Source of the DNA: Eledone cirrhosa
Lineage: Eukaryota
DNA length: 64,000 bases
Direction: 5' to 3'
NCBI GenBank assembly: GCA_964016885.1
Contig: OZ024741.1
Location: 329,282,001 to 329,346,000, forward strand
Shown: positions 3,742-62,039 of the stretch, piece after piece
How the letters are laid out: every line of letters starts with the position of its first letter
Numbering within the stretch: position 1 is the first letter of the stretch
The notes under the pieces: model-generated
Databases searched by the model: none
Told to the model about the DNA's origin: nothing
Seen by the model: only the letters and a program-made list of their open reading frames with translations
Made by a program: the position numbers and the translations under genes

Positions 3742-3896
3742 TAGGAAAATGTTTGACCCCGACGGCAGAAATAGCCGTCGAAACGGCTTGAGCTCTGCCG
3801 TCGGGGTCAAACATTTTCCTATTACCCACTCTACTACTTAGGGTAGTAGAGTGGGTAATGGTCCATCTGGTTCCTTACCACACCTCCTTCGTTATA
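3742..3896 (+). mobile_element. Naiad pLTR fragment (variant B) with two internal inversions, in (TA)n
   Basis: Matches 51460-51591; inverted arm 3742-3768; perfect hairpin 3821-3859. Confidence 0.85.
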
Positions 3897-4202
3897 TATA
3901 TATACAAATATAAATTACCGAGAATCGCATTTCGGCTTTTGGAAATGAGCGAAAAACAACTTCCGAGATGTGTGGCAAGCGCTCCATAGAAACTAGTGAA
4001 CTAGACCAACAATGTACCTTAAAAGTCCAAACACACTGAGACGATGGTTAAACATTATCCGCAAAGCCATAGAAACGACCAAGCTATTCGGGTCAAACAA
4101 ATAATAAAATATGATTGAAAATTATACCCGGACCCTTGGAAACGGTGGTAAAATCCAATATGGGGTTTCTGCAACTCCTAAATCAGGTACTGTCTGCTTA
4201 AA

Positions 4203-4388
4203 CAAATAATTGTTTTTACGTTAGGCACAAGGCAAGTAATTACCCAGTGCATTACTGGTACTTTATTTTATCAACCCCCGTAAAGATGTAAGGCAAAGTT
4301 AACCTTGGCGGGATTTGAACTCAGAATGGCAAGGGCCGTAACTCTATACGTCAAAGCATGGCGTCCGACCCTCTACCAATACTGCTAA
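4203..4388 (-). mobile_element. tRNA-derived SINE (family 1)
   Basis: Matches consensus ggcagtatcggtagagggtc...gagttcaaatcccgccgagg...ggccttgtgccaaaagtagaaacaattat. Confidence 0.85.
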
Positions 4389-5836
4389 ACAAATAATGTT
4401 AAGCTTTTGGTATGATGATCGAACAAGGAAGTCACTTTTTGAACAGGCATTTAGTTCTATGCAAAGCTAAGGACTGACCGTTATCTGAACCCACGTGGGG
4501 GGTTAGAAGGGAGACAACCCATAGTCTTGGCGGATGAATTCAGTATGTGTGGTTATTGCAAAATTGCAAAATATCACGAAACGAATTAAGCTCTCAACAG
4601 AATAGTTTTTTTAAATTGACATATATTTAAAAATTAACACATATATCTTTCTCTCTCTCTCTCTCTCTATATATATATATATATATATATATATATATAT
4701 ATACATGCGTGTGTGTGTGTGTTGAATGTGTATGGTCTTATTGTTAATGCTTCTGATGTCTCGTCTTTATCTATATAGTTATAAAGATTGATATCTTGGG
4801 GAAACGTAGAGTTCGCTTCCCGCTTCCAGCAATAATTTCTCGTTGTCTCATGCAAACACCAACAAACACTCAGACGAGATAAATCACAAACACACATACA
4901 TATACATACACATATACACACACATATACACTCACATACTCACACACAGAGACTCATGTCTATGTATGTATATGTGAGTGTGTGTGTGTTTATGTGCATG
5001 CGTGTATGTATGTATATATATATATATATATGTGTATGTATATATATATATATATATATATATATATATGTGTGTGTGTATGTATATATATATATATATA
5101 ATATATATATATATGTGTGTGTGTGTGTGTGTATATGTAAATATGTATGAGGGTGCTGTGTGTGTATGTAAGTGCGTGTATATGTATTCAGATTTTTTTT
5201 TGTTGTATTTTTCTGTTCTATATTTTTTCTATTCTAAAACAAAACAGACAAATATTTATCTGAATTATTCGAGATTAAACTTTCTATTGTACTATCTCGC
5301 TTTGGGGCTAATAAAAAAATATATCTCGCTTTACACACACACATACATATATACATACATGCACACATACATACATACAGAGACATACAAACACACATAT
5401 ACGCGCATGGATACATACATACGCACACTCACACATGCACATACACACAGTAAGAGACGCACGCGTGCTCAGATAGATGTATAGATGGATAGATGGATAG
5501 ATAGAGAGATAGATAGAGAGATAGATAGAGAGAGAGAAAGAGAGAGAGGGAGAGAAATTTATGTTTGTATAAATATATATATATGTGTGTGGATGCATAG
5601 ATATGTGTGAATATGTGTATCTATCATTTCTTCTTTTCAGCGTTAAACTAATATACTGTTGTAAGGTGTTGCTTCTTAGTGCATTCCGTTCATATTTTTA
5701 CGTATAGACATACACACTCACACACGCACACATACGCACATACGCACGAATATATTCTCTTACATACATACACATTATATACATCATATATATATATATA
5801 TATATATATATATATATATATATATATATATATATA

Positions 5837-58129: not shown

Positions 58130-58878
58130 ACTAGCAGAAAAACCACCCATCGGGTGGTTTTCTGCTAGCATGTGTAGTGTGTATATTGATATTATACGCA
58201 AGTATATATATATATATATATATATATATATATATATATATATATATATATATATATATATATATATATATGTAGATATGATACATCAAATAAAATCGTA
58301 ATTGACAATATATAATACATAGAAATTGAATGAAGACTGCGTTATGCTGTCTTATTTAATCAGTAACGTAATCCATGATACATTAAAAAAGACGATATTA
58401 TATATAGACTGCATTAGCAGAAAATTAGTGACAGAAAATTAGTATGTTTATTTAAGCGATGGTCAACCGGAAGTGGTGACATTTCAGAAATTTTAAAGCA
58501 GTGAATCTTTAAATAAACAAAATATATTTAATCAACAGCCACGAAATTTAGTAGATAAATTATATAATAGTCATTCATTATTTATTCAAAGGAATTCAAA
58601 GGGCGGTGAATTGGCAGTATTGGTAGAGGGTCAGACATGCTTTCCAGCGTAGTTACGTCCCTTTACGATCTGAGTTCAAACCCCGCGAGGTTAACTTTGC
58701 CTTTCATCCTTACGGGGTCGATAAAATAAAGTACCAGTAATGTACTGGGTAATTGCTGGCCTTGTGCCAAAAGTAGAAACAATTATTTATTCAAAGGAAT
58801 CCAACTTATTTTACTAATGGGATAAAAAATTATAAATCGTACGCAATCCCGCGCTCCTTACTTTATTATAGTTTAGAT
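58130..58878 (+). mobile_element. Helentron/DINE-1-like HINE with nested SINE (58600-58788)
   Basis: 5' actagcaga with perfect hairpin, aaccggaagtggtgacattt, 3' ctttattatagtttagat. Confidence 0.45.
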
Positions 58879-61836
58879 GTTCAATACCACGTGATATATT
58901 GGGGTATAGCGTCATTAGATTATATAATTACCTGGTGCTGTGTGATGAGGTCACGTGGTGAGGTTAGGTGGTGGTTTCAGGTGGTGGAGTTATGTGGTGA
59001 GGTTTGGTGATGAGTTCAAGTGGTGAAGTCACGTGGTGAAGTCACGTGATGAGGTCACGAGGTGATGTACGGTGGTGAGGTTAGGTGGTGAGGTTATGTG
59101 GTGTAGCAGTTACTGTCTTTAACTACAGATACATAATGATGGAGATTTTCTCATCTTTTCTTTTGTTATAATTGTCGTCGGCGGCGGCCATGAGGGTGGG
59201 AGTATGATGGTGTTCCGCGTGATAGTCAAGAAATTTATTATGTTGCTGATGATGATCATGGTGGTGATGATGATGATGATGATGAAAATTATGATGCGGA
59301 TAATCATAATGATGACGAAGAAGAAGAAGAAGAAGAAGAAGAAGAAGAAGAAGAAGAAGAAGAAGAAGAAGAAGAAGAAGAAGAAGAAGAAAAAGAAGAA
59401 GAAGAAGAAATGGTTGTGCAGGAATGCGGATCATTTACATCTAAATATAACGTCCACATATAGAATTATATTTATTGCTCCAGTGTGGAGAAATTTCTAT
59501 TTAAAAACCGATTCTGGTGAAAGAATTAACCTGCTTGGATATATAAAACCAGAAGACATCGGTGTTGGGGCATAATTTCAAACTCTTAGCCTTTTGGACA
59601 TGTCCGAGATATTCACTCGCTATACGAAAGTAAAAACCCCTCTCTCTCTCTATATATATATATATATCGCTTGCTTGCTCTCTCTCTCTCTCCCTCTCTC
59701 TCTCTCTCTCTCTCTCTATATATATATATATATATATATATATATATATATATATATATATATATATATATATATATATATATATATATATATATTTATA
59801 TATATATATATATACACATATATATATATATATATACATATATATATATTTATATATATATATATATATATATATATATATATATATTTATATATATATA
59901 TATATACACATATATATATATATATACATATATATATATTTATATATATATATATATACACATATATATATATATATACATATATATATATTTATATATA
60001 TATATATATATATATATATATATATATACATACGTTTATATATATATATATATATATGAGTATAAATTCAGCGAGAATCGCATTTCCGCGGGTAGAAATA
60101 TATATATATATATATAGTTGATAAATGAAACAAACAAAACACAAGAGGCAATTTTCACACAGTTATATTACGCTTGGTGGAAGTGGGGAATATATAAACG
60201 TTTTAAATATAAACCCTTTGTACGCAACATATTTTGGGTTGTTGTTTTTGGGGGGTTGTTTTTTTTTTTTCTTAAGAAGCTAAAGACGATTGATGTGAAA
60301 CATCTTTAGAGCGTCGGACCATGGAGGTGGGGGGCTTAATGGTTAGCCTTGTTTGAGTCATGTTCGGAAGGTGGTGATTTCGATTCTTGGACCGGTCAGC
60401 GCGTTTACCTTTCGTTAAGCAATATATCTCACGTTGCTCCAGAGACATTTAGCGGGTAAATAAATGAGTTATATCTGTAATTAAAAATGCCAGTCTTTTC
60501 ACACACGGTTTCACGTTTGATCTCCCTGAGAACTACATTAAGAATACACGTGTCTGTGGAATTTTCAGCCACTGGCACGTTAATTTCTAAAGCATGCTTT
60601 GTTTTTGTTGTTGTTGTTTTTTTTTTGTTTTTCTTCTTGTTCCATTGCTCAAAGAACTGAAAACCACATCGACGGAAACGGCGAAGTTCCAACACACTCT
60701 CATATATAATCTCTATGAAGCCATGTGGTTTAGATGTTAAGGTGTTTGGTTCATGATCGTTAGGTCGTGAGTTCGATTCTCAACAGCGCGTTGTATCCTT
60801 GAGCAAGACACTCTATTTCACGTTGCTCCAGTTTACTTAGCTGGTAGAAATTAGTTGTTACTGTAGTTCGAATAGGTTAGATAGCGTTGTTACACATCGT
60901 GGAGTGCTACATCTCCCTGAGATGAAAGAAATATGTGTGTTTTTAATGTTTAGGCACTTGCACGTTCAATTCGCTATTAGGGTGCATCGTTGATAGAATC
61001 ACCTGAAAGAAACGTGACTGTAGAATGCTCAGCCATTTACAAGTTAATTTCCTGGGCAGATTGTTCATTGATCGAAAAAAATAGAAGACACAGCGTCGGA
61101 ACTAATGAAACGCCAACGCACACACAAACATAGGCTCAAGCACACATAACACACACACACTTACACACACTCACACACACACTCACACACGCGTGCACCC
61201 ACTCACGCATACACGCACACAACGATATACTCACACACACAGCACACACACACACTCCCACACAAAAACACACTCCCACACACACACATATACTCACACA
61301 AACACACCCTCATGTACACACACACTCATACTTACAAAAATACACACTCACATAAACACACACAAACACACACTCAAGTCCACACGCATCACACACGCAC
61401 AGACACATGGGATAATTCTCTGAACTAACTAACCACTGAACAGGAAGTTCAGAGGCAGGTCTCATTTTATGAGATAAAAGATAGGATCAAGATATAAAGA
61501 GAATCGACCATCGTTTTAAACCAGGTGCACAAGACAATCCTCTTTTAGTTTCTTTGGTTTTGATCTCTCTCTCTCTCTCTCTCTCTCTCTCTCTCTCTCT
61601 CTCTCTCTCTCTCTCTCTCTCTCTCTCTCTATCTATCTATCTATCTCTATCTCTCTATCTCTCTATCTCTCTCTTTCTCTCTCTCTCCATATATATATAT
61701 ATATATATTATAACCGTATATTAATATATATATATATATATATACATATATATAATATTATATAAATATATATATATATATATATATATACATATATACA
61801 TATATAATATTATATAAATATATATATATATATATA

Positions 61837-62039
61837 ACGAAGGAAATGAGGTAAGGAACCAGGTGGACCATAACGCACCAAAGTACTCATAACTTAGGGT
61901 AGTAGAGTGGGTAATAGGAACGAGTAGGACCCCGACGGCTGAGCTCAAGACGTTTCGACGGCTAATTCTGGACTTAAAAAGAAAAAAAAATTACCCGTTG
62001 AAACGGCTTGAGCTCAGCCGTCGGGGTCCTACTCGTTCA
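61837..62039. mobile_element. Naiad pLTR head-to-head insertion in (TA)n
   Basis: Minus arm 61837-61974, ~23 nt filler, plus arm 61998-62039. Confidence 0.85.

Follow-up and report, generated by a model that had tools for sequence, protein, structure and literature searches.

The window analysed here, a stretch of 64,000 nucleotides from Eledone cirrhosa (contig OZ024741.1 of assembly GCA_964016885.1, forward-strand positions 329,282,001 to 329,346,000), is invertebrate DNA rich in microsatellites, and its (TA)n tracts are repeatedly occupied by a Penelope-like element (PLE), termed family A in this report, that carries a hammerhead ribozyme in its pseudo-long terminal repeat (pLTR). Copies of this element are found head to head, and the ends of their arms are confined to few positions: the outward-facing 3' ends fall at two fixed sites, at which reverse transcriptase (RT) would have started, and the 5' ends, at which synthesis of complementary DNA (cDNA) would have stopped, are concentrated in a short segment within the ribozyme. 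Element positions are numbered from the hammerhead cleavage nucleotide C17 (window 51492 = 0), with minus values lying upstream. The features of the reference copy are as follows.

51110 to 54680, plus strand: near-complete PLE of Hydra-clade type (family A; unit of 3542 bp), used as reference
51391 to 51513 (-101 to +21), plus strand: predicted type I hammerhead, cut after 51492, with a U3-A8 core variant and a 6-bp stem III with palindromic loop
51448 to 51453 (-44 to -39), plus strand: hotspot of cDNA stops, in which A 51448 (-44) and A 51452 (-40) are candidates for the start of transcription
51510 to 51514 (+18 to +22), plus strand: putative proximal RT start, UAU/UA at the base of stem I; six arms
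51590 to 51595 (+98 to +103), plus strand: putative distal RT start and pLTR terminus, matching TATATA at 5/6 nt; eight arms

The open reading frame (ORF) of family A (51683-53838) is spread over three frames by two frameshifts, and comprises an RT, a CxCx5C linker and a GIY-YIG endonuclease. YRDD and GIY/YIG-type motifs are present in the protein, which has 266 homologues at E<=1e-10; a Pfam scan of eight proteins returned no match for the six PLE ORF pieces among them. The hallmarks of an endonuclease-bearing PLE were found in turn: (i) a single ORF, here interrupted by the two frameshifts, that joins RT to a C-terminal GIY-YIG domain; (ii) a pLTR that results from a partial tandem and an inverted 5' copy, in that 49756-54680 consists of an inverted arm and a 906-bp direct repeat; and (iii) a tail on one end only, in that the segment from +21 to +99 is present in just one arm in 6/7 short insertions. 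That tail is 79 nt long, compared with an expected 30-40 nt.

The Hydra clade of PLEs, which includes Hydra-1_Obim from Octopus bimaculoides, is described as inserting into (TA)n and as carrying pLTR hammerheads and RWR-type, DKT, CxCx5C, CxxC and CxH motifs without CCHH (PMC8557442, section 11). Family A displays a motif of the RWK type (RWR) and SDKT in its frame A1, the CxCx5C linker, CxxC and CxH close to the C terminus and no CCHH, and its eight insertions all lie in (TA)n. One Repbase member of the clade is likewise reported with an inverted, 5'-truncated copy. Family A differs from the clade in its unit of 3.5 kb (a size of '<3 kb' is given in PMC8557442 as a tendency rather than a rule), in its U3-A8 core, 6-bp stem III and 40-nt loop II, and in a ribozyme distinct from that of Hydra-1_Obim. 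Judged by these motifs and by its target, and with the clade features taken from the published description, family A is classified as a Hydra-clade-type PLE.

The ribozyme was located by a custom scan that gave eight matches in the window and zero to three in each of 10 shuffles; an Rfam scan gave no hammerhead match at the gathering score. Three helices surround a core that contains the cleavage triplet and the 3-8 base pair, and an unconstrained RNAalifold calculation on the three complete family A copies returned stems I-III and the three-way junction, with compensatory changes at 0/22 pairs (only three sequences being aligned). The hammerhead fold lies 1.5 kcal/mol above the free minimum-energy structure for the 51445 copy, and 8.5 and 12 kcal/mol above it for the other two copies. 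It is named here a predicted type I hammerhead, presumed to self-cleave; the U3-A8 variant has already been reported from Schistosoma PLEs (PMC4209133). Stem I closes with base pairs at +18 to +21 in a constrained fold. Stem II is extended, and its loop II holds a sub-hairpin: position -44 forms the 3' edge of the apical loop, and -36 to -43 form the 3' strand of the sub-hairpin, which is kept in two subfamilies. Calculated helix energies are -12 kcal/mol for upper stem I, about -16 for a helix at +27 to +35, -12.5 for the stem II core, -13 for stem III, and about -7 and -2 for the sub-hairpin.

The family A insertions are arranged as follows (long arms are those that end at the pLTR terminus).

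3742 to 3893, insertion 1: short arm 3742-3769 (minus strand, +20 to -8); long arm 3766-3893 (plus strand, -36 to +99); 4-nt microhomology
5836 to 6040, insertion 2: long arm 5836-5972 (minus strand, to -40, or to -44 allowing one inserted base); short arm 5977-6040 (plus strand, -41/-40 to +22)
6657 to 7128, insertion 3: terminus arm 6657-6795 (minus strand, to -40) and one extra base; second arm 6805-7128 (plus strand, -39 to +284)
12281 to 12670, insertion 4: long arm 12281-12523 (minus strand, to -144); short arm 12606-12670 (plus strand, -44/-46 to +20)
43779 to 43939, insertion 5: short arm 43779-43815 (minus strand, to -16); long arm 43816-43939 (plus strand, from -24/-22)
45367 to 45524, insertion 6, of a divergent subfamily: long arm 45367-45463 (minus strand, to -5); short arm 45464-45524 (plus strand, from about -39)
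61836 to 62041, insertion 7: long arm 61836-61974 (minus strand, to -40); 14-nt A-rich filler 61975-61988; short arm 61989-62041 (plus strand, -33 to +20)
49756 to 54905, insertion 8: inverted arm 49756-50236 (+99 to -382), and a direct partial tandem that starts at 50235 (corresponding to -1254) and spans the complete element

A sequence-only reading of the window had described seven short insertions (at 3742, 5837, 6657, 12281, 43781, 45368 and 61837), and their coordinates, (TA)n flanks and outward 3' ends are all confirmed. Six of them are indeed short; the one at 6657 is not, its second arm crossing the terminus into the ORF (+284, window 7128). An eighth (49756-54905) had been overlooked, and a BLAST search with the whole element now gives eight family insertions, of which 8/8 are inverted. 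Three of the insertions depart from a simple pair of arms: at 6657 a slipped copy of -33 to -23 lies between the arms (6797-6807), at 12281 the arms are separated by an ORF-derived piece of about 80 nt (12524 to about 12605, plus strand; +1046 to about +1125), and insertion 8 terminates in the terminus of another family (B) rather than in its own pLTR. At 45368 it is the short arm that extends further 5'. Only one of the seven (12281) contains a complete ribozyme, and the other six are without its 5' half.

Two smaller rearrangements were observed in these copies. Within the long arm at 3742, the sequence from +38 to +62 is replaced (3836-3859) by an inverted copy of +19 to +42, a small internal fold-back. 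The end of insertion 8 (54676-54905) comprises about 125 nt of a segment, here called X, and then the family B terminus; segment X also constitutes the inverted arm of a family B insertion at 30970 (30970-31124), where it ends at nearly the same point. This sharing suggests either that, during one event, RT switched templates from one family's RNA to another's (B to X to A), or that a deletion accompanied a later insertion.

The insertion events look independent. All of their junctions are different, six stem I loop haplotypes are found among the seven, and the arms of a single insertion diverge by 0-11%, with identical arms in two insertions; the subfamily form of the stem I loop is common to both arms in 6/7 insertions, and the seventh shows a single difference. 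That one event had been duplicated locally was rejected on the flanks, which share one 28-nt match among 16, and an artefact of read fold-back or assembly was rejected on the divergence of the arms (up to 11%) and the presence of fillers, although two insertions do have identical arms. An exact 25-nt pattern had no copy in the searched collection of genome contigs.

Much of this architecture is known PLE anatomy, namely overlapping inverted arms, a tail at one end, two internal RT starts and an uncut template. Inverted, overlapping 5' pLTR copies with a one-end tail are standard in descriptions of PLEs (PMC3846280, PMC8557442), and Penelope of Drosophila virilis and the elements of Adineta vaga (PMC2377424, PMC3846280) share with family A a partial tandem and inverted overlapping pLTR, the one-end tail and an internal pLTR promoter. 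What is apparently new is the stop of cDNA synthesis at -40/-44, together with the rule that each of two start sites contributes one arm.

The two 3' ends are as fixed as had been proposed. One arm ends at the pLTR terminus (+99) in 7/7 of the listed insertions, and in 8/8 when 49756 is included, and the other ends at the base of stem I (+20/+22) in 6/7 short copies, the exception being 6657 at +284. Four TAT sites are present between +1 and +101, of which only the first and the last are used (14/14 ends, P 4e-4); the occurrence of 6/7 second arms at one TAT site has P 0.0008-0.005. An end at +99 is paired with a different site in 7/7 short insertions (P 0.037 for random pairing), with about 79 nt, the length of the tail, between the two starts. 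The arm ends at 12668 and 62039 keep the TA register, with one mismatch at +17, and this register with the target fits primer-template pairing. The claim of two primings at fixed TA-type sites through UA microhomology is thus borne out in its fixed ends and register, from which priming itself would follow. A candidate RT-binding element was also observed: a CACTCTAC...GTA hairpin (51516-51545) and a GAGCAC motif (51608-51619) flank both starts, and similar motifs were seen by eye in families E and G of the window and in published Hydra consensus ends.

These ends have a biochemical counterpart in PAc, a Poseidon element from Anolis carolinensis, for which cleavage and extension of both target strands, use of an uncut ribozyme RNA as template, and a dimer model are described (PMC11167929). 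As in family A, PAc has two internal RT starts split by a tail, and AT-rich cuts. The PAc starts lie in the ORF, about 85 nt or more past the ribozyme cut, with 30-40 nt between them, and according to that study have no homology to the target, whereas those of family A are about 79 nt apart, with one at the base of stem I and both in TA/UA register. By analogy, the two fixed ends and the read-through of the family A copies are best regarded as an in vivo echo of that biochemistry; the main text of the PAc study contains neither cDNA stop mapping nor a model for inversion. The coincidence of the proximal start with stem I is probably family-specific, because the nearer start is far from the cut in families B (171 nt) and C (about 220 nt) of the window and in PAc (about 85-90 nt); family G roughly repeats the stem I position. 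Published Hydra-clade consensus 3' ends (24 families; offsets computed here) fall largely into two groups, one of 10 ends (26-43 nt past minimal stem I) and one of 11 (81-149 nt past it), as would be expected from two start sites. In Penelope-13_HM of the same clade both arms apparently end at the same offset, unlike in family A, and PMC8557442, in the portion consulted, contains no mapping of breakpoints.

The 5' ends of the arms, read strictly, are (long arm/other arm) -36/-8 at 3742, -40/-41 at 5837, -40/-39 at 6657, -144/-44 at 12281, -22/-16 at 43781, -5/-39 at 45368 and -40/-33 at 61837. The -39 at 45368 allows for the divergent subfamily and is strictly -31 against the 51445 copy, and several ends are blurred by a few bases through microhomology and age. 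Together with the inverted arm of insertion 8, the 15 strict ends are -5, -8, -16, -22, -33, -36, -39, -39, -40, -40, -40, -41, -44, -144 and -382; the direct arm of 49756 (-1254) was excluded from length fits and makes 16 arms if counted. Junctions had been placed about 5-50 nt upstream of the cut, and 13/14 ends (13/15 with insertion 8) do lie at -5 to -44. The earlier claim that they are distributed across stem III, stem II and loop II does not hold: 9/15 fall at -33 to -44 and 7/15 at -39 to -44, with three long arms at exactly -40. Expressed as a rate per nucleotide, stops amount to 0 in 887 arm-nt downstream of the cut, 0.010 from 0 to -32, 0.034 from -33 to -38, 0.24 from -39 to -44, and 0 from -45 to -101.

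Whether arm length alone would create this cluster bears on a further explanation, in which PLE cDNAs are simply short, long palindromes are deleted or misassembled, and only junctions near +20 survive. Nulls based on length only (geometric, class-specific geometric, log-normal, and permuted lengths) reject it when pooled over all arms (P <1e-4 to 1.2e-3), with the limit that the two arms of one insertion are perhaps not independent. Taken by class with looser ends, the long arms give P 0.009-0.09, a borderline result on small numbers, and the seven other arms P 0.005-0.03; a length null accounts for the six short (+20) arms on their own (P 0.3-0.7). With strict ends, the coincidence of 3/8 long arms at one nucleotide has P 0.0007-0.007, and arms that begin at +20, +99 and +284 differ in length (Mann-Whitney P 0.001) and not in stop position (P 0.27), so that the same stop is reached from different starts. 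Near-perfect palindromes of 139 nt (6657) and 250 nt (26614, family B) have moreover survived in the window, and we regard a length or survival artefact as distinctly unlikely. Clustering that insertion length accounts for entirely, which the earlier reading had named as a refuting outcome, is not what the pooled tests indicate in this window. The pattern of insertions and stops is, on small numbers, real and non-random within this window.

The location of the stops also informs the state of the template. No arm among 15 ends between +262 and +1, which upholds the earlier proposal that RT reads through the scissile bond; run-off from cleaved RNA was rejected, with 0/15 ends at +1 and the nearest at -5. 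It had been further proposed that two primings occur on an uncleaved concatemeric or circular RNA and that RT then stalls on the structured core; in a variant, the obstacle would be a protein bound to the extended stem II, as at the template boundary of telomerase. In keeping with this idea, 13/15 ends lie in the 3' half of the ribozyme and none downstream of the cut, position -44 abuts the apical loop next to the conserved sub-hairpin strand, three arms run past -101 (so that read-through or circular RNA exists), and circular templates have been proposed (PMC4209133). The distribution within the fold nevertheless fits a stall poorly: the strongest helices (upper stem I, the helix at +27 to +35, and the GC core of stem II at -25 to -30) contain no end, stem III and its loop contain three, and the sub-hairpin of loop II, the weakest part, contains seven ends in 6 nt (0.24 per nt versus 0.01), with the peak located where the last helix has just been unwound. 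A circle, being endless, would not by itself produce a sharp stop, and the short copies require neither a concatemer nor a circle, since one RNA with two starts would suffice if RT displaces the first cDNA. A stall would also leave two further observations, a promoter match and fillers at the junctions, unexplained, and we hold it to be unlikely.

The first of these observations concerns the sequence at the stop. When the 299 A residues of a 1441-nt stretch were scored for an initiator (Inr), a motif ten element (MTE) and a downstream promoter element (DPE) at published spacing, -44 came first and -40 shared second place; -44 scores 6/6 for Inr, 9/12 for MTE and 3/6 for DPE, and -40 scores 5/6, 7/12 and 5/6. 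The former is the only perfect TCAKTY between -380 and +60, and the promoter match has a shuffle P of 0.0016. A promoter of this internal type is known from the Penelope pLTR, which holds an Inr/DPE (PMC2377424). The second concerns the joints themselves. Fillers, slips or jumps are found at 4/5 junctions with an end at -39 or beyond, and at 0/2 others: a 14-nt A-rich filler at 61837, an extra base and slipped copy at 6657, extra bases at 5837 and a jump to ORF RNA at 12281, with none at 45368. The extra base at 6657 is a single sense G before -40, which is compatible with a base copied from a cap. Untemplated addition and template jumping are established for the R2 RT (PMC8857657).

Other causes of a stop near -40 were weighed against the same positions. 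The site might reflect RNA processing rather than transcription, whether at an AG that resembles a 3' splice site (following -39 or -34) or by nuclease cleavage in the apical loop. Two AG-ending motifs do occupy -43 to -34, pieces begin at -33 in 61837 and in the 6657 slip, and a D. virilis intron ends at helix I (PMC4209133); set against this, no arm runs on into an upstream exon, the modal end of -40 is not a splice position, and introns are described as usually retained in PLE copies (PMC8557442), which leaves a processing site very unlikely. In a different scheme, the cDNA from +99 would snap back and copy itself, to be captured at the first TAT (+18), so that the +20 end would not be an RT start at all; a variant invokes self-priming on an antisense template (PMC3846280). 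Palindrome-based self-priming is how the Penelope and Adineta vaga inversions have been interpreted, and family A differs from them in a junction microhomology of 0-4 nt and a stop peak in loop II. In keeping with fold-back, the terminus arm encloses the second arm in 5/7, +18 holds the first TAT encountered downstream from the junction zone, the arms share a haplotype, inverted microhomology is found at 3742 (4 nt) and at 6657 and 61837 (AAT/ATT), and in other families the ends almost coincide (B, 26614) or meet at a palindrome (C, 31861). Fold-back would, however, require extra deletions at 45368 (short arm 34 nt further), at 6657 (second arm to +284) and at 49756, and at 12281 an ORF template that is absent from the first cDNA; a first stop at -40 would still need a cause. 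The hot zone is the poorest in inverted 3-4-mers, on which ground joining guided by self-complementarity of the ribozyme was also rejected. Coupling of the two 5' ends of an insertion beyond the shared hotspot was not supported (permutation P 0.30, Spearman P 0.10). Fold-back is judged quite unlikely.

The reading that we prefer, to which we assign an even chance on the sequence evidence, is that the short inverted copies are abortive products of double target-primed reverse transcription, in which RT ran off the 5' end of its RNA within loop II. The GIY-YIG endonuclease would cut both strands of a (TA)n tract, as it does in vitro for PAc, and each 3' end of the target would prime at its own fixed internal RNA site (+99 or +20), by TA pairing with UAU/UA; the two sites would represent the family A version of the known PLE tail, some 79 nt long. 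Most simply, both primers would use one RNA, with the +99 cDNA displacing the +20 cDNA to yield overlapping arms, one per site. Most templates would have their transcription start in loop II (-40/-44), within the ribozyme, and would thus lack the 5' half of the hammerhead; since such an RNA begins inside the ribozyme it could not cleave in cis, so that the template would be uncut at 0 and no re-ligation would be needed. On reaching the RNA 5' end both cDNAs would run off, in many cases with a slip, a switch to a second RNA or the addition of untemplated bases, before being fused head to head by host end-joining. More speculatively, the few arms that extend beyond -44 may stem from read-through RNA or from transfer through a repeat of -44 to 0, which might exist at both ends if the complete ribozyme, found only in the downstream pLTR, sets the RNA's 3' end. 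A half ribozyme at the 5' end of the messenger would leave its cap protected. In a plant retrozyme, a complete 5' hammerhead is reported to render the LTR transcript untranslatable (PMC12029980, section 2.1), which offers a reason to start transcription inside the ribozyme; eight Naiads with half-core ribozymes (PMC8557442) are possibly a related hint.

An array of observations weighs against double priming with run-off at -40/-44, beginning with the evidence base itself, which is the DNA sequence of eight insertions in one 64-kb window. Three of 16 arms pass -44 (-144, -382, -1254), 6/15 stop short of -39, and the six short arms by themselves fit length. The promoter consensus is a foreign one, that of Drosophila and mammals (PMC4581360, Table 1), and it was sought after the peak had been seen; the 12281 subfamily deviates at the -44 motif, and the 5' ends seen in families B, C, E and G do not coincide with their top promoter scores. 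Among families other than A, 2/10 mapped 5' ends fall in stem II or loop II (C, -26, and E, -36, the latter being the start of the full-length E copy inside its own loop II, a point in favor of the model), the remainder including -103, -90 and +123 in family B and -135, +73 and +73 in family C; an uncertain end in family G (about -24 to -41) lies in the same region. Three complete novel Hydra consensus 5' ends (PMC8557442, supplement) were judged by eye to lie outside loop II, a weak test in that their tandem parts are omitted, and transcription of D. virilis Penelope is placed as starting outside the ribozyme, upstream of an intron whose end is at helix I (PMC2377424, PMC4209133). Because -44 lies at the edge of the apical loop, a stop caused by structure or bound protein is possible; access to +18 is predicted to be the same with and without the ribozyme 5' half; and in insertion 8, which ends in a family B terminus, two RNAs apparently took part. 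Finally, an RT that lacks RNase H and displaces strands would allow one RNA with two starts to yield both arms, and these properties, to our knowledge features of PLEs and of R2, are assumed for the family A enzyme.

Three known systems approach this scheme. In L1 twin priming, two target ends prime on the element RNA and the cDNAs are joined through microhomology, as is proposed for family A, but L1 arms lie essentially side by side, and their second site varies. The earlier reading had noted that the family A arms overlap; the overlap is 26-139 nt in 7/7, with both sites fixed, and L1-type twin priming was rejected. The favored model shares with LTR elements the minus-strand strong-stop step, in which RT begins close to the RNA's 5' end, runs off it and depends on a terminal repeat (the R region) to go on; the likeness is one of function only, since the primer is a tRNA in one case and a nicked chromosome in the other, and the 3' edge of the repeat would here be set by the ribozyme. 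We know of no RNase H domain in PLEs, unlike in LTR elements. The non-LTR retrozymes (10.64898/2026.07.22.740005; PMC7229834) are, like the family A copies, short non-coding pieces derived from PLEs with a type I hammerhead; they are described as complete units arranged head to tail, and identity with them was rejected, the family A copies being head to head with a complete ribozyme in 1/7. A literature search, mostly without subscription papers, found none that maps PLE inversion breakpoints on the ribozyme or a start inside it.

The window contains several additional families of similar type. Another Hydra-type element, family E (38462-42105, minus strand), has an open frame of 765 aa, a minimal hammerhead (cleavage at 38597) and an upstream direct pLTR copy from -36. 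Family B forms inverted insertions with a minimal hammerhead at 26614-27181, 30970-31566 and 32741-33107, with arms that end at +171 and +227 (a 56-nt tail); that at 26614 has two 5' ends 13 nt apart, upstream of the ribozyme. Family C (16594-17245 and 31861-32672) comprises non-coding units, about 430 bp long, that bear a minimal hammerhead; one insertion has unequal ends (a 57-nt tail) and the other is inverted and tandem, with both ends distal and its junction in a natural palindrome. Family G (38190-38360, minus strand) is represented by an inverted insertion of considerable age, with hammerhead cleavage at 38206; the match of one arm ends about 10 nt past the cut, and the other arm is about 50 nt longer. 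Two families in which no complete hammerhead was found, and which thus lie outside the ribozyme mapping, are D (55049-55920), an inverted arm and partial tandem, and F (12717-14830), an inverted element with Hydra-type ORF fragments that abuts insertion 4 in the same TA tract.

The remaining repeats are unrelated in type. About a dozen copies of a repeat of some 190 bp that resembles a short interspersed element are present (4205-4388, 6048-6250, 7380-7577, 18650-18842 and at least eight more), one of which starts directly after the TA tract of insertion 2. Two related fragments of a long interspersed element lie at 22533-25406 and 47749-49327 (minus strand), with an RVT_1 match for 23867-24559; a mariner-like element (33616-34566) has 121-bp inverted ends and a Mos1-type helix-turn-helix, and an isolated, near-perfect palindrome of 130 bp with AT-rich ends occupies 33321-33450.

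The formation of tandem and inverted repeats in PLEs and the role of their hammerheads are stated open questions (PMC8557442; PMC11167929), and to these the genomic copies bring a natural run-off map of RT, which argues against a cleaved linear RNA as template in vivo. Should the peak at -40/-44 be absent genome-wide, the finding would shrink to known PLE anatomy. If -40/-44 is a stop on a longer RNA, it would represent a signal similar to a template boundary; should it mark the start of transcription, an RT related to telomerase would employ an LTR-like strong-stop step with a repeat defined by a ribozyme. A fuller scheme, which we offer as a tentative possibility held at well below even, would place the promoter inside the element's own hammerhead, so that transcripts begin with a capped half ribozyme and are cut at their 3' end by the complete downstream ribozyme, creating a terminal repeat of 40-44 nt; a dimeric RT would prime from both chromosome ends at the two sites, and the strong-stop cDNAs would either transfer to the RNA 3' end (tandem pLTR and full-length copies) or be joined (inverted short copies). 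The free 5' strand (+1 to +21) could pair with the vacated 5' strand of stem I at the RNA 3' end, and would hold the two ends together without ligation. If true, this scheme would account for pLTRs, tails, inverted 5' copies and the role of the ribozyme together, without a covalent circle.

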